This document shows positions 2,449 to 49,142 of a stretch of 64,000 nt of DNA, in pieces (position 1 is the stretch's first letter; every line of letters begins with the position of its first letter). A model generated the notes under the pieces. That model worked only from the letters and a program-made list of their open reading frames with translations. It searched no databases and was not told the DNA's origin. A program made the position numbers and the translations under genes. Source of the DNA: a virus; IMG/VR virus record IMGVR_UViG_3300017613_002395; one strand, written 5' to 3'.

Positions 2449-2633
2449 GCAATAGAACTTATGTGGGCGAAATGGAGCTGGCCTTGGAGGAGGCCAACAT
2501 GGCAAACAATGACCGCAACCCAAATCAGCATGCCCAGGTGTATGGTTGGTTGGAGTATGCCTTGGATGTTGTTATTGCAAAGAGGAGCAGGGAGAAGATG
2601 CCGGAGAGGCCCAATAAAGAAAGCATGATTTGA
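2445..2633 (+). CDS. hypothetical protein
   Basis: 62-aa ORF whose start overlaps the previous stop (ATGA). Confidence 0.4.
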   Translation: MSNRTYVGEMELALEEANMANNDRNPNQHAQVYGWLEYALDVVIAKRSREKMPERPNKESMI

Positions 2634-2647
2634 CGAGGAGAACGAGA

Positions 2648-2986
2648 ATGCCTGTCGAAATCACACGAGTTGCTGAGGTAGGGTGGACTAACATCACCGG
2701 GATAAAATGCGGTGTGCCATTTGTTTGTGTTCAGTTAGGCATCGCCCCAGATAGATTTCCTGTAACACCTGGTGATATTGTGGTTTTTCTGAAACCATGG
2801 TTTGAAATTGGGGATAAATATCACGACAGGCTTGTTTGGATTGTTGAGTTGGATATTGTGTTTCGTGTGAAGAAAACAGATGTGTTTGAAGTGCGGAAAG
2901 CAAGACCGGAAGAATGTCAGAGTGTGAATGTGTTTTGGGGTCCAGATGACCTTGATTGCAAAGAGGGTGTTTTGAAGGGCAGTTAG
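2648..2986 (+). CDS. hypothetical protein
   Basis: ATG preceded by GAGGAGAACGAGA, inside ORF 2630..2986. Confidence 0.45.
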   Translation: MPVEITRVAEVGWTNITGIKCGVPFVCVQLGIAPDRFPVTPGDIVVFLKPWFEIGDKYHDRLVWIVELDIVFRVKKTDVFEVRKARPEECQSVNVFWGPDDLDCKEGVLKGS

Positions 2987-2992
2987 TCCCTG

Positions 2993-3550
2993 GTGGGATC
3001 TGCAGTAGTTTTACTCAGTATACGAGCACGAATGATGCACTTTGACATGAAGCATTTTGGTCGTCGGTACATGGATCAGATTATTGATCTTGAGCGGAAG
3101 GTCCAGAATGAGTGCTACGACGAAAACGATATCCGCCGTTTGTTGACTCCCCACAATGCAGCGTCAGCAGTTTTGTTGCACGGTGATCTGTTGTGTGGTT
3201 TTTGTCTCTACAGCTATAGAGCTGAGAAACAAGCGGGACACAGACGCCGGAATGTTGGGATCGATGTGAATCGGCTGACCACACAGACAATCGATCAAGT
3301 TGGAATCGATAATTTTGTCCGCATAGTCTACGTTATGACGGCTTGGATGTGCAAAAAGCTGATTGATGGTGATTACAGAAAGCTCACAATAGAAGTGCCC
3401 GATCAGCACATCGAGACGATTGGGTGTGTTCTTGGGGAGCTGGGGCTTGTGGCTCGACCTGCATGGGATGGGTCGAGTGTTTTTGTGTTCCTGTCGGATT
3501 GGGAACTAAACAGAATTCCGGTGATTGATAATGCTGAGATTGTCATTTAG
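2993..3550 (+). CDS. hypothetical protein
   Basis: 185-aa ORF with a GTG start (alternative ATG at 3032). No confident motif. Confidence 0.4.
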   Translation: MGSAVVLLSIRARMMHFDMKHFGRRYMDQIIDLERKVQNECYDENDIRRLLTPHNAASAVLLHGDLLCGFCLYSYRAEKQAGHRRRNVGIDVNRLTTQTIDQVGIDNFVRIVYVMTAWMCKKLIDGDYRKLTIEVPDQHIETIGCVLGELGLVARPAWDGSSVFVFLSDWELNRIPVIDNAEIVI

Positions 3551-3570
3551 CCGGGGGGTCGAATGGATGC

Positions 3571-15992: not shown

Positions 15993-16368
15993 GCTGCGAT
16001 ACTGGTGGCGGTTTCGTCGGGAGTCACGTCGATTTGCAGCCGATTTTGAGCAGGCCACCAGATGGAAACGAGAAGCGCTTCGATGCTTGCAGGATCTGAG
16101 TCGCAGCACAAAGCGACTGGAGCAGTTGTTGGCACGGGTGCAGGAAGAAGCCGAAGACGTTGCTGAGAAGTTAGCCGACACGGATAAGCTGGTGAAGAGC
16201 TATGATTACGCCGAGGAGGCGTTGAATAACAAGCTCTTGGTGATGGAAGAGGCCCTCAAAGACATGACGTTGCTGAGGGAAATGACCCGAGAGCAGGTCA
16301 AGGCTGATATAGCTGTACATGCAGCTAGACAAGAGGCCCTGGCGCACACTGAGAGGAGGGACGAATGA
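15982..16368 (+). CDS. coiled-coil protein
   Basis: Internal ATG of ORF 15937..16368, chosen to minimise overlap. Start uncertain. Confidence 0.35.
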   Translation: MVNKLRYWWRFRRESRRFAADFEQATRWKREALRCLQDLSRSTKRLEQLLARVQEEAEDVAEKLADTDKLVKSYDYAEEALNNKLLVMEEALKDMTLLREMTREQVKADIAVHAARQEALAHTERRDE

Positions 16369-17966
16369 GTGTTTTGAAAAAGGCTTTTGGCTCAAGTCGG
16401 GCTTTGTCAGTTGTGGCACATGATCGATCCTACCGAATCAAGGCCGGCGGTGTGGGCAGCACATTGACCGCACCCACAAACTTCGGTGGGATGACTGATT
16501 GGGCTAATCAGCGTGGGTATTCGGAGAAGTACGGCCTATTTCATTCGTGGTTGTACTCGGCAATCAATGCTGTTGCTTCCGAAGCGGCTGGCCAGCCCGT
16601 CTGTGTTGGTCAGATGAAGGGCAAGGAGACAAAAAAGAAGGAACAGCAGGAGAAGTTGGTCATTGTGAAATCGAAGATGACCACCACGGCAAGGAGTAAG
16701 ACCGCCAACCAGGAGTTGGAGGTGCTTGGGGATTCGCCCCTCCGGGGTGTCTTGGAGAATCCCAATCCCATTCAGGGCAGATGGCAGTTTGTTTATGCAG
16801 CTGTTACTAATCTGTGTTTGACGGGATGGTCATACATTGTCTATGGCAAGACCAAGGAGGGGTTGGAGTTGTATGCTCTGCCAACGACCTGGGTGACCCC
16901 ATGCCACGAAAAGGGCGCCTTTGCCCAATTCAAAGTATCTAATCCCAAGCGACGAGCAGTGGGGGCTGAACCCGTTGTGTTGGGCAGGGACAACGTGGGG
17001 TTCATGCACTTGCCCAATCCCAGCGATCCGCTGAGTGCCATGGCCCCGGCATCGGCTGAGATGATGGCCATTCGGATCAATGATCATATCTGGACTAGCC
17101 GTGAACAGTTTTTCAGCAACGGGATTTTCCCTTCGGTGATCGTGACCATTGGCAAAGAGCCACACCCCGAAGTCGCAGGGGGTATCCGGCCCAGGCTGAC
17201 GGGTTCGCAGCGGAGGCAGGTAAAAGGGGCCATCAGCAAGGTGATGGGAGGTGTGGCCAACTATGGCAACCCAGCGATCGTGGATGGTTTGATCGAGAAG
17301 ATTGAACGGCTGAGCATGACGCAGAATGAGATGGGATGGGACAAGTCTGAGGAGTCAGTCAAACGGTCGATCCTCTCTGCCTATGGTGTTCATCCCTACA
17401 TTTTGAATGAGGCGCTGAACGTTGGTGGATATGCACAGGCCACAAACATTGAGAAGCGTTTTCACAAACGGGTCAACACGTATTTGGACATGCTTGGCAA
17501 CGTAGTGACAAATTTGGTGGGCAATGCTGAGGAGGACGAGGAAAGCAGTCTGTTGGTTTGGTGGGAGAAGTGTGAGAGTCAAGATCCTCAACAGCGAAAC
17601 TCGATGCTTCGATTTGCCAGGCAGAACAATGACATCAGCCAGAACGAATTTCGGGCTGAGTTGGGGTTTGCTCCTGATGAAGATTGCAACGAGTCGGTAA
17701 TTGACAAATCATCCATTCCTGGCATTGTTAATCTGCTTGGCCAGGTGGGGCAGGGGAGCATCACGCCGGAGCAGGCAAGAGCCGTAATGGAGGGCCTTGG
17801 CATTCCGTCCGATATGGCCAAGAAGATTGCGGGCAAGGCTAAGGAGGTAGCAGCCGTGCAGCAGGCGACTGGTGCATTGCAGGAGGCGACCGAGGAGCTT
17901 CGGCAGACACCGGAGGAGGAAGTTGAGAAGTTGGCGAATCTGATATTGAAGGCCGCCCAAAGCTGA
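16365..17966 (+). CDS. portal protein
   Basis: 533 aa. Size and position fit (upstream of MuF, protease and capsid), with an HK97-type portal-like central region. Confidence 0.7.
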   Translation: MSVLKKAFGSSRALSVVAHDRSYRIKAGGVGSTLTAPTNFGGMTDWANQRGYSEKYGLFHSWLYSAINAVASEAAGQPVCVGQMKGKETKKKEQQEKLVIVKSKMTTTARSKTANQELEVLGDSPLRGVLENPNPIQGRWQFVYAAVTNLCLTGWSYIVYGKTKEGLELYALPTTWVTPCHEKGAFAQFKVSNPKRRAVGAEPVVLGRDNVGFMHLPNPSDPLSAMAPASAEMMAIRINDHIWTSREQFFSNGIFPSVIVTIGKEPHPEVAGGIRPRLTGSQRRQVKGAISKVMGGVANYGNPAIVDGLIEKIERLSMTQNEMGWDKSEESVKRSILSAYGVHPYILNEALNVGGYAQATNIEKRFHKRVNTYLDMLGNVVTNLVGNAEEDEESSLLVWWEKCESQDPQQRNSMLRFARQNNDISQNEFRAELGFAPDEDCNESVIDKSSIPGIVNLLGQVGQGSITPEQARAVMEGLGIPSDMAKKIAGKAKEVAAVQQATGALQEATEELRQTPEEEVEKLANLILKAAQS

Positions 17967-17978
17967 TAAGGATTTGAT

Positions 17979-19061
17979 ATGCCCGTGATCGAAGACAACA
18001 AGCTGGAAGTCACTTGTGGCCTGGTTACGGTTGCAAAAGATCTGGTGAAGATGAAGCGGGATGTGATGCTGGTCCAGATGCGACGAGCCGTTGCCCGGAG
18101 TGTGCATTTGAAGCAGGTCAACAAGTTGGAGGGGAATTTGGTTGATGTGATTGCCCCAGTGATTGAGCAGCAGGTAAAAACGATAGCAAGCGGGTTGGCT
18201 GAATTGGATGGGCCAGAATCCAAATCTGTGACATTGGAAAAGTCACACGCCGATACGGCTCATGCCCTGGTCCAGCACTCGTTTGATGCTAAGGGGGAGA
18301 AGGACAAGCTGGTGGATGAGATGCTGCCCGTCTTGGCGGCACAGATGGCTGAGTCGGCCATTGCCCATTTTTTGCAGATGGGTGTTGTTATTCGGAGGAA
18401 GAAATCAGTATCGGAGAAGTTCAATCCACATCATGGACCAGACGGACGGTTTTCATCGGGATCGGGTAGTGGGGGTGGTCATTATGCTGATACATCTCAG
18501 GGCGTTGATACACAAACTGCTAGTGCGTTTGCGGCAGCTACTGCAAAGACAGGTGAGGCGTTCGAGGCCACTTGTTACAGAGGCACGGGTTTGTCCGGAG
18601 CAGAAGCTGCTCGGACCCGCATCCCAAGTCAGTATGCACAGGGGGAGTACTGGTCGCCATTTCCGGAGGTGGCATCAACGTATGGCCCTGACGTTTTGTC
18701 GCAGAAGGTGACGCTTCAGAATCCAAGGGTGTTTAGATTGCCAGGTAAGAGACCCTATTTTGCTGAATTGCAGAGAGAGTTCGGGACAAAAAACCCAGTG
18801 GAGATTACACAGAAGCTGAAGAGTGATGGTCATGATGGTTTGATTGTGCAGAATGTTCCGGTTAATAGACGCTCTCCTGATGGGGAGGGCGTTTCCATGG
18901 GGGATTCGGTTGAAGTTATTTTGTTCAACAAGACAAAGAGCTTTGAGAAGTTCAATCCATATCACGGACCAGATGGACGGTTTTCATCGGGATCAGGTTC
19001 TGGTGCTCACATGGCCCCAGATACAGGTGGTGGAGCAGGTGGCGGTTCTGGGGGAGCATAA
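17979..19061 (+). CDS. polyvalent virion protein: N-terminal helical domain, linker, ~150-aa possible ART-like effector domain, linker
   Basis: Two copies of the EKFNP(H/Y)HGPDGRFSSGSGSG linker. The middle domain has CYRGTG ... ASTYG ... SVEVILF, a weak R-S-E pattern. Confidence 0.55.
   Translation: MPVIEDNKLEVTCGLVTVAKDLVKMKRDVMLVQMRRAVARSVHLKQVNKLEGNLVDVIAPVIEQQVKTIASGLAELDGPESKSVTLEKSHADTAHALVQHSFDAKGEKDKLVDEMLPVLAAQMAESAIAHFLQMGVVIRRKKSVSEKFNPHHGPDGRFSSGSGSGGGHYADTSQGVDTQTASAFAAATAKTGEAFEATCYRGTGLSGAEAARTRIPSQYAQGEYWSPFPEVASTYGPDVLSQKVTLQNPRVFRLPGKRPYFAELQREFGTKNPVEITQKLKSDGHDGLIVQNVPVNRRSPDGEGVSMGDSVEVILFNKTKSFEKFNPYHGPDGRFSSGSGSGAHMAPDTGGGAGGGSGGA
18405..18479 (+). repeat. linker repeat L1 (SVSEKFNPHHGPDGRFSSGSGSGGG)
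   Basis: DNA- and protein-level repeat shared with L2-L5. Confidence 0.85.
18939..19058 (+). repeat. linker repeat L2 (SFEKFNPYHGPDGRFSSGSGSGAHMAPDTGGGAGGGSGGA)
   Basis: Forms the last 40 codons of the ORF, immediately before the TAA stop. Confidence 0.85.
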
Positions 19062-19082
19062 ACACCACATCCAGGATGGAGG

Positions 19083-19250
19083 ATGGTTGGTGTCTTTGCA
19101 AATTTGGTTGATGAGCTTATGGATATTGAGCTGATGGCCCAACAGGATGATGTGAGTCAGGAAGATTGGGGATGGCAGGTGGATGCACTGTTTCAAAAAT
19201 ACGCTCTATTGTTGGTTGGGGTAGATCCCCCAGCCCAATCATTGATGTGA
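19083..19250 (+). CDS. small acidic ORF (55 aa) between the two polyvalent genes
   Basis: Same frame as 17979..19061, after its TAA. The peptide MVGVFANLVDELMDIELMAQQDDVSQEDWGWQVDALFQKY... looks protein-like. Below the ORF-track length cut-off. Confidence 0.3.
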   Translation: MVGVFANLVDELMDIELMAQQDDVSQEDWGWQVDALFQKYALLLVGVDPPAQSLM

Positions 19251-19258
19251 GACTGCCT

Positions 19259-22009
19259 ATGCCCACTACAGCGTCAGAATGGCTGGCTGAGCATCCGGAG
19301 GATGTTGGAGCCCTAACGGAGATGCTCGCAGGGCTGGATGGCTTTCCCATTCAGGTGTGGACGGAGATGCCTGAAGACATGAAGCGGATCATAGCTGAGC
19401 AATTAGTGGAATCGTTCGCTCAGCCGTACTGGGATGATATCTCTGCTGTGACTGCTGGTCATGCGGAAGAATATTTGGTGAAGGGACTTCAAGAAGGGTG
19501 GTCCATCCGCAGGATTGCCAGCACGATGGCTGAGAGCTTTCAGGGTGGGACGAGCAAATATGCAATGATGCGAGCCACCAGAATAGCCCGCACAGAAAGC
19601 GGACATGCGCTGAATGCAGCCCGCAAGGCTCCCATAGACCAATTGATGGCTGAATTGGGCCCACAGGTGCCCATGCAGCCCGTGTGGCTGAGTGTGTTGG
19701 GGAACACGACGAGGGATTCCCATGCCAACCTGGATGGTGTGCCGGCCGACGAAAATGGTGAGTGGGAATTGGGTGGTGTTAAGATCCCATGGCCAGGACA
19801 CATCAGTTTACCAGCTTCAGAGCGGTGCAATTGTTTTCCAGCCGGAACTTTAGTTGAAGGCGACTTTGTCGGGTCGCAGCGTGCGTGGTACGAGGGGGAG
19901 TTTGCCAAAATCGTGACCGCGTCTGGAAGACGTCTCACCGTGACCAAAAATCACCCAATAGTAACCTCTAAGGGACTTGTTGCTGCAAGCATGTTGCAGC
20001 CAGGTGATAAGGTCCTTGCCTACAATTCCAAGATCAATAGCAGGCATTGTTCCCCCGTTGGTGTGGACAAATTTGCCATTGATACATTTGCGAGTCACCT
20101 TCTTTCGAGCGGCAATCAAAAACAGGACAAACCAGCCCCTATCGAGCAAGTATGCCAAGCGTTCTTTTCCGGGTTTATTTCCAGTTTGGGGACGGGGTTG
20201 GTTGAAATCCGCGACACTCAGATGGACGATTTCTATGGCGACGGAAAATTCATCAAGGGCAAGATCGAGATTGTAAGGGCCAACTGGAAATTGCTGCAAG
20301 ACGGGAAATTTGGCCAATTTGAGAAATGTGGCGATTCGATCTTCGTCCTTGAACCTGCCGAGTTGTCGGTGAAATTTGGTGATGGCTCTAGCAGATTTTG
20401 TGGCGTCGGAGTCTCGGGAGCCGCGACGTGCTTTCCATGCTGCACCGAGAGTCTTTTGGATGTACGAGGGCGATTTGAAATTACGCCATCGGGCTCGTTG
20501 GCTGTCGGAGTAGCTGCGGATTTTAATACCAGCCTCAAGGAATCGGCGGCGAAGGAGGGGGCGGGAGTGTCCAGTTTCCTTCGAGATTCGCTGCAGCGAT
20601 ACCCCGGAGTTGTATTGTTCGATGAGATCACCGAGGTTCAAAATTTCTATGCGTCTCATTATGTGTATGATCTCCAATCGAGTTATGGGTTAATTGTTGC
20701 GTTTGATCCTGATTCTACAGGGTTGGGGGGCATTGTCAATAGTAACTGCCAATGCACCATTGTTACCCAGTTTGGTATGCAGGAGGGTGATGCCCAGCAG
20801 TTGATCCAGCAGTACTTCGACCGCAAGCTGGATTATGAAGGGGGCAAATCCGTATCGGAGAAGTTCAATCCCTACCACGGACCAGACGGACGGTTTTCGT
20901 CAGGATCAGGTGGTGGAGCCCACATGGCTCCAGATACAGGAGGTGGAGCAGGTGGGGGTGGGGGTGCTGGGATTGGTTCTTTCAAAGTGGGCACGAAAAA
21001 CAGCAAGAGCGAGCGGAGGCTGCATAAGACGTGTGCTAAGTTTTCAAGAGATGATCAGATGCTTGATGAGGACTTTAACACACCAGCTAGAAGGATAAAC
21101 GAGCAGGCTGCTCAGGCTAATGGCGTACGTGAACGGTTTAAGAAGCCGAAGGCTGATTTTGAGATTCGGGTAGTAAGAACAAAGGATGTTACACCGAGCC
21201 AGGATTACGATGATTGGATGGATGATCACGCTAAAAATATGGCTGGTTTGTTGAGAAAATTCAACGGCCCACAGGCTACCGACATGATGGAGGGAGAGGT
21301 TATTAATGTGGTCACGCCCATAGCAATCGAGAAGGGCGGAAAGCTCATCGATGGGAACCATAGGCACGCAGCACACGTCATCAATGGGGAAGATCATATT
21401 GTGGCTATTGTTGCTTTGGAAAGGCCCCAAGCTACTGGAAAAGTGGTAAATATGACGGAGGCTCTGCAGGCTTTGAGGCATATGAAGTCGGCTGAGTTAC
21501 TGGAGAAGTTCAATCCACATCATGGATCAGATGGACGGTTTTCGTCAGGATCAGGTGGTGGCGCTCACATGGCCCCAGATACAGGAGGTGGAGCAGGTGG
21601 GTCAGCGGCTGGTGGGGGGAGCACACGCAGTTCCAGAGCCAAGCGAACACACAAACCAAGCACAAAAGAAAAGCAGCAGAGAGCGGAATCTGAGCAGGCC
21701 CGATTGGCAAAACTGATTAGGGGCACAAATACCGACGACAATGATGCTTTCGATGTGTTGGGATCGGGTTGGGCCGTCGAGGTCAAAACCATAATGGACA
21801 ATAACAACAACAAGATAACGATGCACCCGAAAAGTCGACGGAGGAAGGAATCTTATGCAGAGGAGCATGGGGTAACAAAACACACGGTTGTGATTGATGT
21901 GAGGGGCAGCAAGCGTAGTTATTACCACAAGGCAGGAGTCGGGGCTTATCGTTTGTCGTCTATGAGCAGGATTTCTGTTTCTGAAATCAGAGAAAGGCTG
22001 GGGGCATGA
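19259..22009 (+). CDS. MuF/SPP1-gp7-family head morphogenesis protein (intein-containing) fused to a ParB-like nuclease domain and a PD-(D/E)XK domain
   Basis: MuF-like RTESGHALNAAR...TTRDSHANLDGV...ERCN|intein|CQCT. ParB-like KLIDGNHRHAAHVINGEDHIVAIV. REase-like DAFDVLGSGWAVEVKT. ATG at 19259 is preferred over the TTG at 19166. Confidence 0.8.
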   Translation: MPTTASEWLAEHPEDVGALTEMLAGLDGFPIQVWTEMPEDMKRIIAEQLVESFAQPYWDDISAVTAGHAEEYLVKGLQEGWSIRRIASTMAESFQGGTSKYAMMRATRIARTESGHALNAARKAPIDQLMAELGPQVPMQPVWLSVLGNTTRDSHANLDGVPADENGEWELGGVKIPWPGHISLPASERCNCFPAGTLVEGDFVGSQRAWYEGEFAKIVTASGRRLTVTKNHPIVTSKGLVAASMLQPGDKVLAYNSKINSRHCSPVGVDKFAIDTFASHLLSSGNQKQDKPAPIEQVCQAFFSGFISSLGTGLVEIRDTQMDDFYGDGKFIKGKIEIVRANWKLLQDGKFGQFEKCGDSIFVLEPAELSVKFGDGSSRFCGVGVSGAATCFPCCTESLLDVRGRFEITPSGSLAVGVAADFNTSLKESAAKEGAGVSSFLRDSLQRYPGVVLFDEITEVQNFYASHYVYDLQSSYGLIVAFDPDSTGLGGIVNSNCQCTIVTQFGMQEGDAQQLIQQYFDRKLDYEGGKSVSEKFNPYHGPDGRFSSGSGGGAHMAPDTGGGAGGGGGAGIGSFKVGTKNSKSERRLHKTCAKFSRDDQMLDEDFNTPARRINEQAAQANGVRERFKKPKADFEIRVVRTKDVTPSQDYDDWMDDHAKNMAGLLRKFNGPQATDMMEGEVINVVTPIAIEKGGKLIDGNHRHAAHVINGEDHIVAIVALERPQATGKVVNMTEALQALRHMKSAELLEKFNPHHGSDGRFSSGSGGGAHMAPDTGGGAGGSAAGGGSTRSSRAKRTHKPSTKEKQQRAESEQARLAKLIRGTNTDDNDAFDVLGSGWAVEVKTIMDNNNNKITMHPKSRRRKESYAEEHGVTKHTVVIDVRGSKRSYYHKAGVGAYRLSSMSRISVSEIRERLGA
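19832..20746 (+). mobile_element. intein (305 codons) inserted in the NC(R/Q)CT motif of MuF
   Basis: Cys1 in CFPAGTLVEGD, block B TVTKNHPIVT, blocks F/G HYVYDLQSSYGLIVA...GGIVNSN, and a +1 Cys. Excision gives ERCN-CQCT. Confidence 0.75.
19850..20659 (-). CDS. HTH plus Vsr/DUF559-type PD-(D/E)XK endonuclease (homing endonuclease candidate), antisense within the intein
   Basis: Minus-strand ORF open from 19850 to 20677 (TTG). ATG at 20659 lies 11 nt after GGAGA. Motifs: GVSLQRISKETGHSRPLLRRRF, PVGPYNLDLALDEFSVAIEIVH, ERLAYLLDRGWFVLF. Confidence 0.7.
   Translation of the reverse strand: MRRIEILNLGDLIEQYNSGVSLQRISKETGHSRPLLRRRFLEAGIKIRSYSDSQRARWRNFKSPSYIQKTLGAAWKARRGSRDSDATKSARAITKFHRQLGRFKDEDRIATFLKLAKFPVLQQFPVGPYNLDLALDEFSVAIEIVHLSVADFNQPRPQTGNKPGKERLAYLLDRGWFVLFLIAARKKVTRKCINGKFVHTNGGTMPAIDLGIVGKDLITWLQHACSNKSLRGYYWVIFGHGETSSRRGHDFGKLPLVPRTLRPDKVAFN
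20849..20971 (+). repeat. linker repeat L3 (SVSEKFNPYHGPDGRFSSGSGGGAHMAPDTGGGAGGGGGAG)
   Basis: Separates the MuF domain from the ParB-like domain. Confidence 0.85.
21497..21619 (+). repeat. linker repeat L4 (LLEKFNPHHGSDGRFSSGSGGGAHMAPDTGGGAGGSAAGGG)
   Basis: Separates the ParB-like domain from the PD-(D/E)XK domain. Confidence 0.85.
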
Positions 22010-22278
22010 GTTACTGGCTCGAAGACGAATCTGGTGATTTCCTTGGTGATTTTGCTACAAATCATGGAATCATCACAATGCGGGAGAGAGCTGGCCCATT
22101 GCTGATGGAGTTGCTTGATAATGGGGAATTGCCTGCAAACAAGCTAAGGGGCTTGGGGGATGAGGTGAAGGAATCACCCGAGCTTGTCTACATTTCAGAT
22201 CTTGTCGTGGGAGCTGAAGGATCAGTTTTTATTACGGATGGTTGTGGTAGTGCAGATATGGGAGAACAAGATGTCTAA
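22006..22278 (+). CDS. hypothetical acidic protein
   Basis: ATGA junction. 90 aa. Confidence 0.45.
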   Translation: MSYWLEDESGDFLGDFATNHGIITMRERAGPLLMELLDNGELPANKLRGLGDEVKESPELVYISDLVVGAEGSVFITDGCGSADMGEQDV

Positions 22279-22612
22279 TCGGAATGGTAGGGTTCGGAGA
22301 TCGTCACCAGATCGGCTAACCATAAGCGATGCTGATACAATTGCCCTTAGTGATGCCGTCCACGATCGGTTTGTGCGGGTGGCTGATGAGTGGTTGCGAT
22401 CATGCAAGGAGCAGCTCCCAATACCGAAGGAGATCGACCAGGATCTTCTTCGATGGAGAACAATGGTTGTTCGATTCAAAAGTGGTGATTTCCGCAACAC
22501 AGAGAGTGAATTGATGGCTTTAAAAACCATCGCCCAATGGACCGTTGATGTGAATAACCAGTTGAGGAATCAGCCGGATAAAAGGGTCAAGTGGAAGGAG
22601 GGCTCGGGATGA
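22271..22612 (+). CDS. hypothetical protein
   Basis: ATG after GGAGAACAAG, inside ORF 22184..22612. Confidence 0.45.
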   Translation: MSNRNGRVRRSSPDRLTISDADTIALSDAVHDRFVRVADEWLRSCKEQLPIPKEIDQDLLRWRTMVVRFKSGDFRNTESELMALKTIAQWTVDVNNQLRNQPDKRVKWKEGSG

Positions 22613-22821
22613 GTGTGCTTTATTTGTTGCTGGGTATGGTGTTGGGTTTTCTGTTGGGAATGGCGCTGGGAGCAGCATCAATCAAGGCCAATTTATCAGA
22701 CACCGTTTTAGCTCGGTTGGGGGAGCGGCTTGGAGAGGGACGTGAATTTACTCTGACAGTTACCAAGCCCCAACAGAACAAAAAACAGGAACGAAAAAAC
22801 CAGTTAGCGGAGCTCAATTGA
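22609..22821 (+). CDS. small membrane protein
   Basis: ATGA junction. MSVLYLLLGMVLGFLLGMALGAA is a likely TM segment. Confidence 0.4.
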   Translation: MSVLYLLLGMVLGFLLGMALGAASIKANLSDTVLARLGERLGEGREFTLTVTKPQQNKKQERKNQLAELN

Positions 22822-23045
22822 TGGCCCATCTTTTGAGGCATCCCAGGCCCAGGATTGCCGACGTCCAGTGCTCCCGTCTCCAATTCCAGCCGGGTGATCG
22901 TGTGCTTGTTCGGGTGTTTGGCAAGTTGGAAAAGGCTGCCAAAAAGAAGCTGAGCAAATCCATTCAGAAATGGGCTGGGTGTGATGTGGAGGTCTTGATC
23001 ATAAACAATTTAGAGATGGAGCTTACTGTTGACCAATCGCACTAA
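22821..23045 (+). CDS. hypothetical protein
   Basis: ATG overlapping the previous stop. 74 aa. Confidence 0.4.
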   Translation: MAHLLRHPRPRIADVQCSRLQFQPGDRVLVRVFGKLEKAAKKKLSKSIQKWAGCDVEVLIINNLEMELTVDQSH

Positions 23046-23301
23046 CGGCAATGGCTATGCGGAAATACTCAAGGATGAGGAATCGTTGGGCATCTTTCTG
23101 AAAAACCTGGCAAAGTTTGATCAGTTGTTTTGTGCGGAGATGATGTCGGGGCGTGAATTCTCTCTTAAAATGGAAGTTCATGCCAACAAGGGGGAGTTGA
23201 TTCATTGCAGGGTGGACAGCACATCCTTTGATCGGCCGCATGGCGTGGAAAAAAGGGTTTCCTCTAAACAGAAGCGGCAGATTACCAAAACTAACCTTTG
23301 A
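23029..23301 (+). CDS. hypothetical protein
   Basis: TTG start. 90 aa. Confidence 0.3.
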   Translation: MTNRTNGNGYAEILKDEESLGIFLKNLAKFDQLFCAEMMSGREFSLKMEVHANKGELIHCRVDSTSFDRPHGVEKRVSSKQKRQITKTNL

Positions 23302-23361
23302 GGTAATCTGCAAATAGGTTATATTTGGGATCGTAAGACGTCTAGGCTCTTCGTTGATGCT

Positions 23362-23396
23362 GCGGCGTGTTGTTCCAGGAACACACGTCGCTTTTT
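23362..23396 (+). terminator. intrinsic terminator-like hairpin plus T-run
   Basis: gcggcgtgttgttcc-agg-aacacacgtcgc followed by ttttt. Lies just upstream of RBS GGAG and the ATG at 23411. Confidence 0.5.
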
Positions 23397-23410
23397 ATTG
23401 GAGTCATGAG

Positions 23411-24166
23411 ATGGGAAAGAATGTCACTTTTTACCTGGGACCGGGCGGCACTCACTTGGCGAGTCGTAGCTTGGTGGTCACCCGGATGCGAAGAGCCGGT
23501 GATGATTCAGCTCTGGCGGCTGCATACACAAATGCAGGTATTGTGAACACGACGGAAATACAGACGGTTCCCCTAGCTGATAGCACAATCTATCAGGCTG
23601 TGGGGGTGGATACCTTGGCGGATGGGTCGACGAGTGTGCCCGACGTTTTGAATTTCCACACGGGATCGTTGCAATTTCCTGGTCCCAGATCACAAGACCG
23701 TTTGTCGATCTTGGGCATGGAGGACTTGTCGAGTAGTTCCTCTAGCAGTTCTTCCAGCAGCGTTTCCAGTGGATCTTCCAGTTCCTGGTCGAGCACGAGC
23801 AACAGCTCTAGCCACAGTAGTTCGAGCAGTTCCAGTTCCAGTAGTTCGAGCAGTTCCAGTTCGGTCAGCACGAGTAGCATCAGCACAAGCTCGGTCAGCT
23901 CCAGCTCCAGTTCGATTAGCACAAGCTCGGTCAGCTCCAGTTCGATCAGCACAAGCTCGGTCAGCTCCAGTTCCAGTAGTCCGAGCAGCTCCAGTTCCAG
24001 TAGTTCGAGCAGTGTAAGCTCCAGTAGTTCGAGTAGCTCCAGTTCGATCAGCACAAGCTCGAATAGCTCCAGTTCCAGCAGTGCGAGCAGTTCTAGTTCC
24101 AGCGGCTCAAGCAGCTCCAGTTCCAGCAGTACGAGCAGTGCATCGTCCAGTAGTTGGTCCACCTAA
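23411..24166 (+). CDS. virion-associated protein: ~105-aa N-domain plus ~145-aa Ser-rich tract
   Basis: In-frame ATG after the terminator and GGAG. The C-terminal two thirds are Ser repeats with SSISTSS. Confidence 0.6.
   Translation: MGKNVTFYLGPGGTHLASRSLVVTRMRRAGDDSALAAAYTNAGIVNTTEIQTVPLADSTIYQAVGVDTLADGSTSVPDVLNFHTGSLQFPGPRSQDRLSILGMEDLSSSSSSSSSSSVSSGSSSSWSSTSNSSSHSSSSSSSSSSSSSSSSVSTSSISTSSVSSSSSSISTSSVSSSSISTSSVSSSSSSPSSSSSSSSSSVSSSSSSSSSSISTSSNSSSSSSASSSSSSGSSSSSSSSTSSASSSSWST
23729..24157 (+). repeat. Ser-rich tract S2
   Basis: Shares ~48 nt of near-identity (atcagcacaagctcggtcagctccag...ttcgat.agcacaagc) with S3. Confidence 0.9.
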
Positions 24167-24922: not shown

Positions 24923-26614
24923 ATGCCATTGCCATTGCCAAAACAAGGGGAGGCCAAGGATGCTTTTGTGGCCCGTTGTGTGGCAAGTGATGCAATGGTC
25001 GATGAGTATGGTGACGACAAACAGAGGCTCGCAGTGTGTTTCTCTCAGTGGGAGAGGGCCCAGGAGCAAAAAGATATGTCCGTGAATGATAAGCTGCTCA
25101 AGGTGATTCGGTCTCGGCAGCAGAAGCAAACCGAGTTTGCCTACGGCATTCTGACGGCTGATCGGTACGTCCAGACACTGAGCGACGTTGCTGGTTTTGA
25201 GGTTTGCTATCGTTATGGTTGTCAGGGGCATGTCAGCTTCAATGATGCATTGGAGAAGGCTGCCAAGACCCTGGTCTACAGCAATCCCGACATGGTCTTG
25301 CTTGATAAGGCCAGGGATCAGTACAGCCGACTGTCGGGGGAAAGGGATCTGCCGAAGAACACGTTGATGGTTTTTCGGCATGTGCTTACTACCAGCAGGA
25401 AAGACCGCGATGGGGATGTTCTTCATGCAGATGGCATGGAAACCGACCCGAAGATGCTCCTGCTTTGGCAGCACGTTCACACAATGCCAATCGGTAAAAT
25501 GCTGGCCGAGGTGGATCGGACCAAAGACAAACTGATCCTCGATTCATGCATCATTGACATCAATGATTTGTCCCACGATGCTGCCGTCATGATTGACAAT
25601 GACATGGGCCGCTTTTCGCATGGGTTCCGTGCTTTGGAATTCCAGAAAATCAAAGCCGAGGATGGATCGGATAGTGGCTTTGACATAACGAAGGGCGAGA
25701 TCATGGAGGAGAGCCTGGTATCGGTGCCGGCAAATCCGGATTCTGAAACCGAGCAGGTTCTGCTGTCATTGGTCGAAGGCAAGAAGCTCACAAGCCCGTT
25801 GATGAAAGAAGTAGGGAAAGGTATCCGCGAGAGGTTGCCGGTGACGGTGCCCGTTAAGCTGGATGTCAAGATGACCATCAATGGTCAGGAGGTGGAAGAT
25901 GAGAACAAGTCCGGAGATCGAAAAGAAGAGGGAGGAGGAGAAACAGGCACATCAGAAAAAGCCGATGAGGGTGGTGGAAAAGAAGGCAAGCAAAAGCCAA
26001 AGCCCGAAGACAAGGAAGTGAAATGCCCGAAGTGCGGCAGCACAGACATTGAGGATGGTGTGTGCCAGGACTGTGGTTACAAGATGCCCCCTTCCATTGA
26101 TTCTGGAAAAGATGCCGATGGGCAGGAGAAGGAATCATTTGATTGTGAGTGCCTGGATTGTGGCCATCAGGTGACTTCATCGAAGCACTGCGATGAGTTG
26201 GAGTGCCCTGAATGTGGTGGGGAGATGCGGAGAGCTGAAAGACCCGGTCCTGGCAAAGCCGGCAGGGTCATTTCGGGCACAAACGAGTCGAAGATTCGGG
26301 ATGCCAAAGCTGATATTGATGAGGTGCTGAAGTCGGATCAGCTTGATCGGACGTTGAAGGCCACACTTCGCCAAGCCAGCAGGACACTCGACGCTGTGCT
26401 TGCTTCGTTAGGCACACCAACGCAGAAGGATGAGGGATTGGATGTTGCTGATGTGGCAAACATTGTGTTGCAGAAATTCACAGCTGTTCAAAGGCAGATT
26501 TTGGCCGATGCAATTGGAACCATCCGTGAGGTGGATAAGCAGGAGGCAGAGGCTGCTGCTGTTAATGCATTGATGGGAATCAAATTCAATCCGAATCATG
26601 GGGAAGGCCATTGA
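24923..26614 (+). CDS. prohead protease (HK97 family) fused to a charged region, two zinc ribbons and a scaffold-like C-terminal part
   Basis: VLTTSRKDRDGDVLHADGME...LLWQHVHTMPIGKM (protease core). KCPKCGS...CQDCGY and CECLDCGH...CPECGG (zinc ribbons). Ends in GIKFNPNHGEGH. Confidence 0.7.
   Translation: MPLPLPKQGEAKDAFVARCVASDAMVDEYGDDKQRLAVCFSQWERAQEQKDMSVNDKLLKVIRSRQQKQTEFAYGILTADRYVQTLSDVAGFEVCYRYGCQGHVSFNDALEKAAKTLVYSNPDMVLLDKARDQYSRLSGERDLPKNTLMVFRHVLTTSRKDRDGDVLHADGMETDPKMLLLWQHVHTMPIGKMLAEVDRTKDKLILDSCIIDINDLSHDAAVMIDNDMGRFSHGFRALEFQKIKAEDGSDSGFDITKGEIMEESLVSVPANPDSETEQVLLSLVEGKKLTSPLMKEVGKGIRERLPVTVPVKLDVKMTINGQEVEDENKSGDRKEEGGGETGTSEKADEGGGKEGKQKPKPEDKEVKCPKCGSTDIEDGVCQDCGYKMPPSIDSGKDADGQEKESFDCECLDCGHQVTSSKHCDELECPECGGEMRRAERPGPGKAGRVISGTNESKIRDAKADIDEVLKSDQLDRTLKATLRQASRTLDAVLASLGTPTQKDEGLDVADVANIVLQKFTAVQRQILADAIGTIREVDKQEAEAAAVNALMGIKFNPNHGEGH
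26576..26611 (+). repeat. truncated linker motif L5 (GIKFNPNHGEGH) at the protease C-terminus
   Basis: Same KFNPxHG core as L1-L4. Confidence 0.6.
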
Positions 26615-26711
26615 GATTAGATCTCCCAATCCATTCCCCATCAGGAAAGCGACACGTCGCGGTTTGGTCCGTGATGGTCACAGCGATCGGTCTTAGTTGA
26701 AAGGTTCAAAA

Positions 26712-28352
26712 ATGAAAATGACCGGAGCTCTTAAGAAGTGGCTCGTCGAGAACTGCGACGTGAAGACGGACGCCAGTGATGACGAGTTCAAGAAGGCCGC
26801 CAGCGAGGCACTGATGGACGGCAAGTTGTCGACCGAAAAGTTCGCTGAGTTGTCCAAGGATGAGGCGACTGAGAAGGCAAACGAATTTGCCAAGAAGTTT
26901 GATGTCATTGCCGACAACCTGACCAAGGTTGTTGGTCTCCTGACTCCGAATGAGGAAGAGGAAAAGATCAAGGACGGCGAGAAGAAAACCGAGGAGTCCA
27001 AGGAGAAAAAGATCAAGGACGGCGAGAAGAAAACCGAGGAGTCCAAGGAGAAAAAGACCCCCAGCCGGTTGGCCAAGATGGTTGCCGAGCTTGGTGGCAC
27101 CCCGGTCGAGGTCGACGGCAAGGATATTGATGCAAGGGTCAAGGATGCTTCCGAATCCTACGCCACGACGAAGTCGGCCCTCACCTATCCCGATCGGACC
27201 AAGGGCGGAGGCAGACACCCCCTTGCTGGTCAGCGGGTCCAGGTGCAAGGTGTGGGCATCGACAACTCCAGCGAATTGGACAAGGCCCTGAGTGGTGTAT
27301 GGTCCAAATTCCAAATCCTGTCCATTACACCCCGTATTGCCGGCTCGAAGCGGCGGGCGTGGGAGATGATGACAGACCATGAGAAGGGACTGCTTTGTCA
27401 CTTGGTGGAGAATTGTGACTGGGATGCCAGCACCGATGAGCATGTGAAAACGGTCAGGGGTTATGGTGGTGGAATCAAAGCCCTGATCGATGACTCCACC
27501 TCGGGCGGTCTGGAAGCAGCTCCGATTGTGTTTGACAACGAGGTCATCCAGGCTCCGTTGCTCAATGGTGAGTTGTACCCATTGGTGGATGAGAAGCCCC
27601 TGGACCGTGGCCGACGAATCGAGGGCGTCTCGACAGGCACGGTGACCGGGTCTTGGGGCGGCGTAGACGCATCGGCCATTTCGCTGTTCAATACGGCGTC
27701 CTATGTGGCGGCATTCGACACGACGGTCTACCGTTGGGAAGGTGCTGTGCAGGTGGGCCTGGACTTCCTCAGCGATACGCCCATCGATTTCAACTCTCAC
27801 ATCACGTCCCAATACGGACAGCGGTTGCTGGAGGATCTGGACGACGTGATCGCGGTTGGCAACGGAACAACGCAGCCGCAGGGAGTGATGAATGCTTCCG
27901 GTACAACCAGTGTTGCATTCGGTGGCGCAACGAGTATTGGTGCCTACGAGAGCTTGAGGTTCTCGGTTCACAAGCGGGAGCATACCGCAGGTGTGAAGAA
28001 CACGGCCGTCTTCTGCGGCACGGAGACGTCTTATCAGCGGGCAATTGGGCTGCCCGTTGGTGCGGCGGACAACCGCCGTCTGTTCGACACACAGACTGGA
28101 GCCAATTACGATGGCTACAGCTTTATGCAGCGATCGTACAAGATCAACGAGAGCCTGACAAACTCTCAGATCTTCTACGCAATCCTCGGCCGCTATCGGA
28201 TGTACCGACGCAAGGGCTTCACAGTCCGAACGTCGACCGAGGGCGATACGTTGATGCGTAACAACGAGATGCTGATCGTTGTGATGGCTCGGTATGGTGG
28301 ACAGATGGAGCGTGGTGCCTGTGCAGGAGTGACGACAACGGCTCCTGCCTGA
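26712..28352 (+). CDS. major capsid protein (HK97 fold) with N-terminal delta/scaffold-like domain
   Basis: ~546 aa. Charged coiled-coil N-terminus, then an HK97-like body. Follows the protease and is followed by a strong terminator. Confidence 0.8.
   Translation: MKMTGALKKWLVENCDVKTDASDDEFKKAASEALMDGKLSTEKFAELSKDEATEKANEFAKKFDVIADNLTKVVGLLTPNEEEEKIKDGEKKTEESKEKKIKDGEKKTEESKEKKTPSRLAKMVAELGGTPVEVDGKDIDARVKDASESYATTKSALTYPDRTKGGGRHPLAGQRVQVQGVGIDNSSELDKALSGVWSKFQILSITPRIAGSKRRAWEMMTDHEKGLLCHLVENCDWDASTDEHVKTVRGYGGGIKALIDDSTSGGLEAAPIVFDNEVIQAPLLNGELYPLVDEKPLDRGRRIEGVSTGTVTGSWGGVDASAISLFNTASYVAAFDTTVYRWEGAVQVGLDFLSDTPIDFNSHITSQYGQRLLEDLDDVIAVGNGTTQPQGVMNASGTTSVAFGGATSIGAYESLRFSVHKREHTAGVKNTAVFCGTETSYQRAIGLPVGAADNRRLFDTQTGANYDGYSFMQRSYKINESLTNSQIFYAILGRYRMYRRKGFTVRTSTEGDTLMRNNEMLIVVMARYGGQMERGACAGVTTTAPA
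26964..27053 (+). repeat. perfect 45-nt tandem duplication (KIKDGEKKTEESKEK x2)
   Basis: Units 26964-27008 and 27009-27053 are identical and in frame. Confidence 0.95.
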
Positions 28353-32166: not shown

Positions 32167-32609
32167 GGCTCGCTGCATTGGACCGAGCCTCCGAGGATGA
32201 GGAGGTGATTGAGGACAGCAGCGGGCTAACAGGAGGATTGACAGCCTATCATTTTCGGGTGCTATGTGAATCAGAATGGAATGGAGGGGGTGGTTACACG
32301 CTGCCTGAAGTTGGCCAGATGACGCTGGACCAGGTGTGGTGCCGGCTCTGCGACATGGACATGCTGAGGCGTTCGACAGGAAGATCAAAAAGTATGAGTT
32401 CTCTGGAGGCTCTGCATGCGGTGCCGGTTGGTGATGATGGCAAGGTCGCTGGACGGACAGCAGATGGGCAGCCGTTCCGGGCTCGGATTGGTGGCAAATC
32501 AATGGCGAGGCAGTTGATGGAAGCACAACAGGCAAAGGAAGCCAAAGCTGAAACGAAAACCAAACTCCGGAAACGGAGGAGAAAGAATCGTGGGACTTCA
32601 GCTAGCTAA
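31522..32609 (+). CDS. tail assembly chaperone frameshift product (gpGT-like; -1 shift at 32154-32160)
   Basis: The -1 frame (ORF 31995..32609) is open across the overlap and continues ...GKWIGLAAL... to just inside the tape measure start. Confidence 0.55.
32154..32160 (+). promoter_or_regulatory. -1 programmed frameshift slippery heptamer G GGA AAT
   Basis: X XXY YYZ in the zero frame (codons GGA AAT at 32155-32160), 3 nt before the TAG at 32164. Confidence 0.6.
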
Positions 32610-34746
32610 AGCTTTCGTTTTGATTCGAGCTGACAAGAGTAAATTGGCATCCGATCTCAAGGGTGTGCAAAAGGAAACCGAGTCAGCAATGACGTCCATT
32701 GGCAGCGGGGTGGGTGCCCGCATGACTGCCATGATTGGTGGTCTTGCTGCTGGGTTTGGTGTTCTGAAATCAATGAATCTTGCCGGGCAGTTTGAACAGA
32801 CAACCATTGCCTTCGAGACCATGATCGGGTCCGCCGAAGAAACGAAGAAGACATTGGCTGATCTGTCTGAGTTCGCTGCTTTGACACCATTTGAGATGCC
32901 CGAGATCCTGCAAGCTGCAAGGGGGCTGATTCAGTTTGGTGAGCTCGGCGATGAGATGATGGAGACGCTAGAGATGCTTGGCAATGCCGCCGCAGGCACG
33001 TCGATACCGTTTGGATTTTTGGCATTGGTGTTCAACCAGGTGCGTGGTGTTGGCAAATTACTTACTCAGGACTTCCGCCAGTTGTCTATCCGTGGCATCC
33101 TGTCGCTTCAGGATATAGCCGATCATTTTGATGTGACAAGGGAAGCGGCCCAGAAGATGATTAGTACTGGTAAAATCAGCTTTGAAGATGTGCGGGCAAT
33201 TTTCAAGGGCTTGAGCGAGGAGGGTGGTCGGTTTCACAACTTGATGGAGAGGCAGTCCAGATCGTTGCTCGGTAAGTGGAGTACACTGAAGGACACATTA
33301 AACATAATCTCCCGTACATTGGGAGAGGTGTTGGCTCCTGTAGCGAAGGATTTCTTGACTGGTGTTATTACAATAGCAGAAAACATCAGAGTGTGGGTGG
33401 ATGAAAACGGGAATCTTTTGAAGTCGTTTGGAAAACAAATAGAAACCATGATCAAAGTAGCTGCTGCTATTACGGCTGTGACAGTTGCCCTCAAACTATA
33501 TCGTTTGGGTGTGCAAGCTGCTGCTAGGGCTCAGGCTATTTTCATGGCTCTATCTGGACCGAAGGGGTGGGCCCAGTTGGTTGCTGGATTTACAATTGCT
33601 GCATTTGCTGTTGCTGGAGTTGAGAAGGTTTTCAATACCGCTATGAAGGGTGTGGAAGACGATACGGATGGTGCTAAGAAAAAGACAGATGAGCTGAAGG
33701 ATGCCCTTGATGAAGTGATCGAAACCAAAACGGGCATCGAATCATTGTCGTCGGCTTTTCAGAGTTTGGGCACGTCTGTTGAGAATATACCGTTTGATTC
33801 CCTCAAATCCATGGACCAGATGAGTGCCCGGTTTGGTGAATTAGAAAAGAGAATGTTTGTGCTGAAGGAGCAACTCAAAGCGGAGGACCTTATCGAGTCA
33901 GGCACATTTCGTCCCAGCCTTGAGAACAAGACGTCTATGGCTGTAAAAAGCAAGATGTGGGCCATGCAACCGGAGTTCAAAGAGCTGAAGGGCATCTCTG
34001 ACCTGTTTGGTGGGTTTGAAAACATGGCCAGGGATTTGTCAGATATGTTTGGATCTATCAAATCCCCTATGGAGGATTGGGAGGAATTTGAAAGAAAGGT
34101 CAATGTTTTTCGGGAGCGGGGCATGCTTACAGACGAGCAAGCCAAGAATATTTTGGGTTTGCATTGGGATAAGACAGAGATGGGTCAAATTGGAATACAA
34201 CTTTCGGAGATGGAACAAGAGGCTGATTTGTTATCTGGTAAATTGACCGAGGCCAAAGTCAAGCTGATGGAGTTCAGTAACATTCCCAGTGTGACCGATG
34301 TTCAGATCAGTGCATTCAAGGACCTGCAGAATCATATAGCTGATTTGAAGAAGACGGCCGAATTGAAAGAGTTGGGAAACCAGATCACTGAGTCCCTGGC
34401 AACGCCGGCTGAGAAAGCCCGGAAGGAAGCCAGGGAGCTGTGGGATCTGTACGATGAGGGTTTTATCACACCCGAGAATGCCCTGCGGGGTTTGGATCGC
34501 CTGGAGAAGCAGATGGGTGGGCTGCTGGAGAAAGAATGGGTCATCCAGGGGCGGGTGGGCTTTTCCGAGTTTGGTCAACGAATTCAGGAAGCGTTCCTTC
34601 GACCAGACGATCCGGCCAAGGTCTCGGCTGAAGAATCCAAGAAGCAGACTACACTCTTGGATCAGTTGAACAAGGCTGCTGATAAAATCCAGGAAAAGAT
34701 GGACGAGAACAAAGACAACGACGTCGTTTTGGCCCCGCCTGAATAG
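32590..34746 (+). CDS. tail tape measure protein
   Basis: 718 aa, GTG start after GGAGGAGAAAG. TP901-type N-terminal tape-measure pattern (QFEQTTIAFETMIGSAEETKKTLADLSEFAALTPFE), then a long helical region. Confidence 0.8.
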   Translation: MGLQLAKAFVLIRADKSKLASDLKGVQKETESAMTSIGSGVGARMTAMIGGLAAGFGVLKSMNLAGQFEQTTIAFETMIGSAEETKKTLADLSEFAALTPFEMPEILQAARGLIQFGELGDEMMETLEMLGNAAAGTSIPFGFLALVFNQVRGVGKLLTQDFRQLSIRGILSLQDIADHFDVTREAAQKMISTGKISFEDVRAIFKGLSEEGGRFHNLMERQSRSLLGKWSTLKDTLNIISRTLGEVLAPVAKDFLTGVITIAENIRVWVDENGNLLKSFGKQIETMIKVAAAITAVTVALKLYRLGVQAAARAQAIFMALSGPKGWAQLVAGFTIAAFAVAGVEKVFNTAMKGVEDDTDGAKKKTDELKDALDEVIETKTGIESLSSAFQSLGTSVENIPFDSLKSMDQMSARFGELEKRMFVLKEQLKAEDLIESGTFRPSLENKTSMAVKSKMWAMQPEFKELKGISDLFGGFENMARDLSDMFGSIKSPMEDWEEFERKVNVFRERGMLTDEQAKNILGLHWDKTEMGQIGIQLSEMEQEADLLSGKLTEAKVKLMEFSNIPSVTDVQISAFKDLQNHIADLKKTAELKELGNQITESLATPAEKARKEARELWDLYDEGFITPENALRGLDRLEKQMGGLLEKEWVIQGRVGFSEFGQRIQEAFLRPDDPAKVSAEESKKQTTLLDQLNKAADKIQEKMDENKDNDVVLAPPE

Positions 34747-49065: not shown

Positions 49066-49142
49066 TTGACTTTATAGTGCCAGACGCTATAATAGTAGTA
49101 GATGAGGGAGAGGAAAGGGAACCACGAAAGGAGAACAGCACG
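49066..49142 (+). promoter_or_regulatory. early promoter-operator-leader cassette P1
   Basis: TTGACT (49066-71), TATAAT (49088-93), imperfect palindrome at 49072-49092, AUG at 49102, purine-rich leader ending AAAGGAGAA. Confidence 0.7.

Follow-up and report, generated by a model that had tools for sequence, protein, structure and literature searches.

The window analysed here, a stretch of 64,000 nucleotides (64 kb) of viral DNA (IMG/VR record IMGVR_UViG_3300017613_002395), carries a MuF-family head morphogenesis (minor capsid) gene that appears to be interrupted by an intein, with a second gene lying antisense inside the intein. The MuF open reading frame (ORF) occupies 19166..22009 on the plus strand and encodes 947 aa; besides the ORF call, it is identified by matches to Phage_Mu_F and to PHROG head morphogenesis families (best 1e-20). 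Its true start is probably ATG 19259 (MPTTASEWL...), where homologues begin MPTTA. The insert, at 19832..20746 on the plus strand, has 305 codons and is predicted to be a class-1 intein, and the minus strand at 19850..20659 encodes a putative homing endonuclease of 269 aa. The locus probably represents a mobile MuF intein whose homing endonuclease is a separate nested gene, on the opposite strand and in exact codon register. The coordinates and frames of the original prediction all hold on re-reading the sequence, as do the 305-codon insert, the 275-codon minus-strand ORF and the codon boundaries shared by the two.

The plus frame reads ...ISLPASERCN^CFPAGTLVEGD...TVTKNHPIVT...SHYVYDLQSSYGLIVA...GGIVNSN^CQCTIV (^ marks the junctions), the 3' end of the intein being ...SHYVYDLQSSYGLIVAFDPDSTGLGGIVNSN, then CQCTIV. 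Cys1 of the intein is at 19832-19834 and the +1 Cys of the C-extein at 20747-20749. An N-terminal Hint subdomain with blocks A and B (intein codons 1-72, 19832..20047) is followed by a stop-free central linker (codons 73-268, 20048..20635), and a C-terminal Hint subdomain with blocks F and G (20636..20746) completes the intein; past 20659 this last part is ordinary single-strand coding sequence. The expected motifs are present: TKNH in block B, VYDLQ in block F and the terminal Asn in block G (...IVNSN). Pfam Intein_splicing matches the insert with an E value of 1e-5 and is found in 10 of 11 family members, and Cys1 is kept in 10 of the 11 aligned relatives. When the first 72 and last 48 plus-frame intein residues of 11 relatives are combined in a profile, it matches more than 30 solved inteins over both halves, among them Pho RadA (3.2e-9), MJ0781 (5.1e-9) and Mtu RecA (~1e-6), with further matches to DnaB, NrdJ-1 and the hedgehog Hint domain. 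These results support the prediction of a Hint domain at the ends of the plus frame and a class-1 intein, which is predicted to splice.

The insertion site points in the same direction. Against Phage_Mu_F (PF04233; curated cut-off 29.6 bits, profile length 112), the unspliced protein scores 28.0 bits over profile positions 5-87, and removal of 19832..20746 in silico raises the score to 36.8 bits over positions 5-111 of 112, in agreement with the predicted restoration of ERCN-CQCT. A search with the spliced protein finds 79 homologues, nearly all of intein-less length (197-387 aa). The empty site that had been expected is seen in the 11 homologues aligned (44-62% identical), which read ...SLPPxERCNCQC(T/S)I... 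unbroken; a synthetic intein-less MuF allele would read ...GAGCGGTGCAAT^TGCCAATGCACC... around this point. Judged from these alignments, the intein sits at a conserved N^CxC site of MuF.

The minus-strand ORF, taken mechanically, is open for 275 codons (19850..20677) and reaches upstream to TTG 20677. The endonuclease gene itself is likely to start at ATG 20659-20657, where all homologues begin, and it ends with the stop at 19852-19850. It encodes a helix-turn-helix (HTH) DNA-binding module in residues 9-42 (20534..20635), identified by profile and Pfam matches and by the AlphaFold2 (AF2) model, and a Vsr-like nuclease core of the DUF559/MTES_1575 type in residues ~104-240 (19940..20350), with the motifs QQFPVGPYNLD and AIEIV. 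The HTH had been predicted to overlap block F of the intein. It lies just inside, and block F instead overlaps the start codon and a Shine-Dalgarno-like sequence.

A search of 5.8 billion proteins with the minus-strand product finds six homologues of 28-62% identity. In the JGI annotation two of these are very-short-patch-repair endonucleases, and one of the six contains both DUF559 and MTES_1575. The wider family has 590 cluster representatives at E<=1e-30. In an alignment of 11 sequences, the residues E106, Q123, G127, N130, D132, A141 and E143 do not vary, and most family members also have D173. Single-sequence searches with the minus ORF give only HTH_58 in Pfam (E 0.026) and no meaningful match in PDB, so that family profiles are needed. 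Across the 11 members, Pfam MTES_1575 is found in eight (best 2e-7) and DUF559 in one (3e-6), and at the N-terminus HTH_58 is found in six and HTH_7 in five, with HTH_23 matching as well. The family profile matches 2lvs (5.8e-5) and the PAI subdomain of Sleeping Beauty (0.0026) with its HTH, and 3hrl, a DUF559-type endonuclease-like protein (0.024), and 3r3p, I-Bth0305I (0.22), with its nuclease. The AF2 model of the endonuclease has a predicted local distance difference test score (pLDDT) of 76, with the HTH formed by three helices at pLDDT 85-88. In Foldseek, the top four PDB matches to this model are 3r3p_B, 3r3p_A, 1vsr and 1cw0, the best being 3r3p with a probability of 1.0. The Pfam matches and the structural similarity to I-Bth0305I and Vsr bear out the prediction of an HTH joined to a Vsr/DUF559-type nuclease, and support a conserved protein of this kind with predicted endonuclease activity.

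Codon register and selection on the two strands

The minus ORF and the intein are in exact antisense register, plus codon 20675-20677 coinciding with minus codon 20677-20675. The endonuclease ORF spans intein codons 7-276, block B included, with codon 7 corresponding to its stop. Intein codons 8-72 double as the final ~65 sense codons of the endonuclease, as had been foreseen for its tail and the block A/B region. In this register an antisense stop arises only opposite TTA, CTA or TCA. Synonymous Leu and Ser choices alone can therefore keep both frames open, and every relative uses the in-register antisense frame because such choices suffice. TTA, CTA and TCA together make up 2.1% of codons in the window. 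Among the endonuclease codons, where any of them would create a plus-frame stop, none is observed and ~5 are expected; given the 29 Leu and 18 Ser of the minus protein and the codon usage of the window, the probability of finding none is ~0.003.

The original prediction had remarked on ~830 nt being open on both strands. That openness is real and is not exceptional, since the major capsid gene (26697..28352), taken as a control, has an in-register antisense open run of 547 codons, longer than the one at the intein. The minus ORF antisense to the capsid gene (26706-27983, 425 aa) has no significant Pfam match (SARS_3b at E 0.008 is below threshold), and its open run is treated as a chance product of codon bias. 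Because of this control, dual openness is rejected as evidence; taken alone it is weak, being not rare in this genome. The minus ORF within the intein could likewise be a chance antisense frame produced by codon bias, with only the plus strand coding, an explanation to which the capsid run and the openness probability of ~0.003 both speak. It is extremely improbable in view of the minus protein, which is conserved down to 25-30% identity, is represented by the 590 clusters and matches a Vsr-like nuclease family and fold. A promoter-like site ahead of the gene and the substitution pattern in the centre of the intein (both below) also stand against it. It is the conservation of the minus protein, the strand-specific substitutions and the recurrence of dual openness in every relative examined that set the feature apart from chance.

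The substitution pattern was read from codon alignments of the window with five relatives (L010, L001, L004, L011 and L002), and the result is the same whether the plus or the minus proteins are aligned. In the centre (intein codons 73-268), the most variable position is plus position 1, which is minus position 3 (0.50 vs 0.37). Codon changes there that are synonymous only in the minus frame number 600, and those synonymous only in the plus frame 210; amino-acid identity reaches 0.59 for the minus-frame protein and 0.44 for the plus-frame one. The last 29 intein codons (277-305), which lie beyond the endonuclease gene, vary most at plus position 3 (0.53 vs 0.28), with 128 changes synonymous only in plus and eight only in minus. 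The N-terminal Hint subdomain (codons 1-72) has intermediate positional variability, with 185 plus-only and 133 minus-only synonymous changes. The frame under selection is therefore the minus frame in the centre, the plus frame in codons 277-305, and both frames in the N-terminal Hint. The chance explanation could be extended by viewing the endonuclease alignment as the mirror of a conserved plus-frame protein, and the asymmetry of 600 to 210 argues against this.

Since the centre is selected in the minus frame, the plus-frame linker is a passenger, the antisense read-through of the endonuclease gene that was originally proposed, and needs only to remain open. The N-terminal Hint is different. 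It overlaps endonuclease residues 205-269, which the AF2 model predicts as a helix and a strand with pLDDT ~90, and this overlap therefore suggests dual coding of two folded segments. As an example of the mirroring, block B TPNHPV lies opposite the endonuclease motif Y(W/G)(V/M)I(W/R)G.

Another explanation is that MuF is disrupted, or fractured: its two halves would be made separately and trans-spliced or left unjoined, and the endonuclease would be a free-standing insert between them. There is precedent for this, as the first Vsr-like homing endonuclease genes to be found lay between the halves of split inteins (PMC2677866). The open plus frame makes it very improbable here. No plus-frame stop, which the original prediction had regarded as the sign of a pseudogene, occurs across the insert in the window or in any of ~100 relatives examined (for the short contig L003, see below), and TTA, CTA and TCA are absent from the endonuclease codons where ~5 are expected. 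The endonuclease also lies on the opposite strand, unlike those of fractured genes.

Distribution, putative expression signals and proposed mobility

The same nesting and register are found in metagenome contigs with homologues of one or other product, namely L001, L002, L004, L005, L010 and L011. Searches of phage genomes by tblastn give hits on the strand opposite MuF or head morphogenesis genes in cultured phages of Gordonia, Pseudomonas, Cronobacter and Escherichia, for which the annotation itself was read, and, by the hit table, in Mycobacterium and Vibrio phages too. The register is identical in the window, Vivi2, vB_Pae_BR313c, ES2 and KMB36, and four more representatives, sampled across the top 150 of the 590, are all nested at an N^CRC site.

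A wider survey covers 80 IMG/VR loci (of 246 found) and nine loci from GTDB genomes. None of the 89 has an in-register antisense stop anywhere in the endonuclease domain, and the antisense ORFs measure 277-1226 codons. Intein motifs were sought with hidden Markov model (HMM) searches, since a regular-expression screen was too strict (26/75 found, with the core motif missed in 14 loci). An N-terminal Hint match adjoins the endonuclease in 81 of the 89 loci; the short C-terminal Hint HMM matched 40, and Hint halves bracketing the endonuclease are shown in 36. The GTDB loci (L017-L025) lie in prophage-like regions or contigs of metagenome-assembled genomes from Gemmatimonadaceae, Atlantibacter subterraneus, Bacteroidales, Terracidiphilus, Phaeospirillum, Frankiales, Micromonospora, Streptomyces synnematoformans and Omnitrophota.

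Some relatives depart from this pattern. L003 (Logan SRR15221276_614577, gene 115-972, P0004), 34% identical, is the only relative with antisense stops (11). Peptides resembling block B and the stretch before block F are still mirrored in it, and its 3' end is overlapped by another gene of the same strand; the contig being short, it may represent either a decayed intein or a free-standing copy. L002 (JGI Ga0490019_096070) has LRVGGVLV instead of CFPAGTLV, with no Cys at intein position 1, and its upstream sequence is not MuF-like, while L011 (P0008, ENA k141_766778) has the block B His replaced by Gln (TPNQP). From these residues, both inteins may be splicing-impaired or variant. In Escherichia phage vB-Eco-KMB36 (L009, OR525703.1), a member of the endonuclease family lies antisense in an intein at a different MuF site (locus 1778-3748; ...SRTSTT^CFTAETEL...AIVKN^CRARDG), with TTGACT-16-TATAAT 56 nt upstream of the endonuclease ATG. 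The record names a 'minor head protein with inserted intein', not an endonuclease, and E. coli phage records note the inserted intein and omit its endonuclease.

Putative expression signals of the endonuclease gene lie within the C-terminal Hint blocks. A sigma-70-like promoter, TTGACA-16-TAGAAT (11/12 matches), is located at 20712..20739 on the minus strand, inside block G codons and ~50 nt upstream of the ATG. In the 64 kb, no minus-strand site other than this one (read as 20739..20712) matches at 11/12 or better, and ~1 such match is expected by chance on both strands of the window together. Over 66 non-redundant loci, sites of at least 10/12 occur in the 115 nt upstream of the endonuclease start in 17%, compared with 1% of control windows (Mann-Whitney p = 1e-12), and two loci have a perfect consensus. 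A candidate Shine-Dalgarno-like GGAG is at 20672..20675 on the minus strand, 12 nt upstream of the ATG, and is the antisense of the block F Leu-Gln codons. A comparable purine-rich element, formed by Leu-Gln/Glu antisense, is present in close relatives and, by a crude pattern, in 32 of the 80 wider loci. The start codon of the relatives is Met or Val, the complement of a His codon before block F VYDL, and this is seen in 76 of the 80. The promoter and ribosome-binding signals of the endonuclease thus appear to be embedded in blocks G and F.

The endonuclease does decay in this family: a stop is found in it with the intein/extein frame still open at seven of the 89 loci (L033, L050, L058, L084, L086, L093 and L100), consistent with decay after fixation. 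Decay of this kind, and the vertical-looking inheritance that a preprint describes for some VSR-type groups (10.1101/2025.01.02.630785), suggest a further explanation, in which the window element is a fixed relic whose intein still splices because MuF is needed, whose endonuclease is unexpressed or inactive, and whose insert is inherited vertically. This is unlikely. The window endonuclease is intact and keeps all family-invariant residues, its frame is under purifying selection among close relatives, the near-consensus promoter is kept, and the intein is patchily present among closely related exteins. The window extein is 59-63% identical to many intein-less alleles and only 53% and 47% identical to two intein-bearing ones, and the extein of P0007 is 77% identical to empty alleles. 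Since intein-bearing exteins are interspersed among intein-less ones, their distribution fits horizontal mobility or repeated loss.

As a mobile intein with a nested antisense endonuclease, the element would function as follows. The plus strand encodes one continuous precursor consisting of the MuF N-extein, the N-terminal Hint half, a linker of ~200 residues, the C-terminal Hint half, the +1 Cys and the remainder of MuF. This linker fills the position that the endonuclease domain has in canonical inteins, and is the stop-free antisense read-through of the minus gene. Transcription of the minus gene probably depends on a sigma-70-like promoter of its own within the block G coding region, and its translation on the Shine-Dalgarno-like sequence and an ATG, which are the antisense of the block F (Asp-)Leu-Gln and His codons, respectively. 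Splicing of the precursor would restore ...ERCN-CQCT... in MuF. The endonuclease would cut intein-less MuF alleles of co-infecting phages near the ERCN-CQCT site, and repair would copy the whole intein and endonuclease unit into the cut alleles.

Several observations, in addition to the ordinary nature of the dual openness, weigh against this reading. The penultimate residue of the intein is an atypical Ser in place of the usual His. The AF2 model of the intein, made from a three-sequence alignment that is too shallow, has a pLDDT of 30 and is uninformative on both the Hint fold and the disorder of the linker, which leaves the profile matches as the argument for the Hint fold. No His is conserved across the endonuclease family at the position equivalent to H213 of the EDxHD motif, and for that reason the protein is named Vsr-like and is not taken as a proven EDxHD member. 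The nuclease matches are top-ranked yet statistically weak (Foldseek E 0.012-0.18; PDB profile 0.02-0.2). Finally, 12 nt is a long spacing between GGAG and ATG for a Shine-Dalgarno sequence.

A broader proposition, to which we give an even chance, is that the window element belongs to a large and old lineage; within it, endonuclease and intein would be obligately nested on opposite strands and would have evolved together as a single overlapping unit. The proposition is based on essentially every detectable family member being nested in the same register (89/89 and ~15 others), in hosts that span Actinobacteria, Proteobacteria, Bacteroidota, Acidobacteriota and more. It also draws on the ways in which the two genes seem tied to each other: the endonuclease begins with a codon complementary to the His codon that precedes block F, the putative ribosome-binding site and promoter seem to lie in blocks F and G, and the folded C-terminal ~65 residues of the endonuclease share codons with the folded N-terminal Hint. 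If this holds, the lineage would be among the largest natural families of long antisense overlapping genes with both products folded.

Phage context and comparison with known systems

The window has a G+C content of 52% and forms a structural module belonging to a tailed phage or prophage. The portal gene (16365..17966) lies upstream of MuF, and a protease/scaffold-like gene (24923..26614), the major head protein gene (26697..28352, plus strand; the control used above) and a tape measure gene (32590..34746) are also present. A nucleotide search of 16365..24166 against ~50,000 phage records gave no match. The five other promoter matches of at least 11/12 in the window are all on the plus strand, at 49066, 49378, 50435, 52280 and 57325. 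They have the form TTGAC(T/A)-16/17-TATAAT with 11-12/12 matches and cluster at 49-57 kb. They are probably phage early or host RNA polymerase promoters.

MuF of the window has a long C-terminal extension 3' of the intein (20750-22009, plus strand) with unannotated domains. One of these has a ...KLIDGNHRHAAHV... motif and is ParB/Srx-like by eye; a second, with ...GWAVEVKT..., resembles PD-(D/E)xK by eye. Pfam searches with the C-terminal domains of MuF and with ORF 17979..19061 gave nothing significant, and phrog_5931 matches MuF residues 704-738 only. A direct repeat of ~115 nt occurs in four copies that are 62-87% identical, at 18413-18527 and 18944-19058 in ORF 17979..19061 and at 20857-20971 and 21502-21616 in the MuF extension, seemingly between domains. 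It encodes the module EKFNP(Y/H)HG(P/S)DGRFSSGSG..AHMAPDTGGGAGG, and the intein-less MuF homologue P0010 has a similar C-terminal end, EKFNPYHDPATDRF. A linker and a processing site are both possibilities for this module.

The arrangement is already published as a preprint and is widespread in the present survey. Gosselin, Arsenault and Gogarten (bioRxiv 10.1101/2025.01.02.630785, v2 October 2025) describe full inteins with anti-sense VSR-like endonucleases in actinobacteriophages. Supplemental Table 1 lists 'minor capsid, MuF-like ... VSR -1 ORF' inteins in Vivi2 gp14, Angelicage, Affeca, Fosterous, Sampson, Sejanus and others. The same preprint cites Gorbalenya 1998 and Gogarten 2002 for antisense LAGLIDADG genes in inteins, so the suggestion in the original prediction that the arrangement was unreported for inteins did not survive: antisense LAGLIDADG genes have been described since 1998 and antisense Vsr-like genes in MuF inteins since 2025. 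As far as the accessible literature goes, antisense Vsr-like MuF inteins are described for a handful of actinophages only.

What the present analysis adds is breadth beyond actinophages, putative expression signals within the Hint blocks and evidence of strand-specific selection. By term search, the main text of the preprint has no mention of embedded promoter or start signals or of non-actinophage occurrence, and it appears to contain no codon-position or strand-specific selection analysis. Gene callers report one of the two, the MuF-intein ORF or the endonuclease antisense to it, and in no case both, and the element is therefore systematically half-annotated. It offers a clear natural example of ~800 nt that code on both strands, and the shifts of selection along it make it a useful model for the evolution of overlapping genes and for the acquisition of endonucleases by inteins.

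The window element resembles the 'VSR -1 ORF' inteins in its MuF host protein (IPR006528), its insertion site (...N^C(R/Q)CT), its non-split class-1 intein and its Vsr-like endonuclease in the antisense -1 (in-register) frame. The endonucleases are homologous: with that of the window as query, tblastn gives hits of 31-34% identity (E 1e-15 to 1e-18) opposite the MuF genes of Vivi2, Fosterous, Affeca and Angelicage, with weaker matches in Sejanus and Sampson. The window element differs in coming from another phage lineage, with the 52% G+C given above; the preprint covers PhagesDB only.

The antisense LAGLIDADG inteins, for which the same preprint gives Synechocystis DnaX, Chloroflexus SpoVR-like inteins and seven actinophage MuF inteins as examples (10.1101/2025.01.02.630785), are by that description also contiguous, with the endonuclease on the complementary strand. 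The endonuclease family is LAGLIDADG in those cases and not Vsr-like.

In structure, the predicted nuclease core is best matched by I-Bth0305I, the prototypical EDxHD homing endonuclease (Taylor et al. 2011, PMC3239194; PDB 3R3P). Both proteins are bipartite, with N-terminal DNA-binding and C-terminal Vsr-like parts. Among the motif residues of I-Bth0305I (E170, D196, N208, H213 and D222; PMC3239194), E170, D196 and D222 would correspond to E106, D132 and D173 of the window protein, equivalences that are read from an alignment. I-Bth0305I differs in being encoded by a group I intron and in having NUMOD motifs rather than HTH_58-/HTH_7-like modules; the motif His is not conserved in the family of the window protein, and the sequence similarity is marginal (profile E 0.22).

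Vsr-like homing endonucleases owe their definition to Taylor et al. 2011 and to the study of fractured genes, in which a free-standing Vsr-like or GIY-YIG endonuclease gene lies between the halves of a split intein, the Vsr-like genes sharing a strand with the host gene (Dassa et al. 2009, PMC2677866). The window element is like these in having an intein-associated Vsr-like endonuclease in a phage gene, as a separate ORF with putative control elements of its own. In fractured genes the host gene and intein are divided into two ORFs with a same-strand endonuclease, whereas the window intein is contiguous and its endonuclease is antisense. By its predicted gene structure, the window element has the defining features of the 'VSR -1 ORF' inteins and lacks those of fractured genes.

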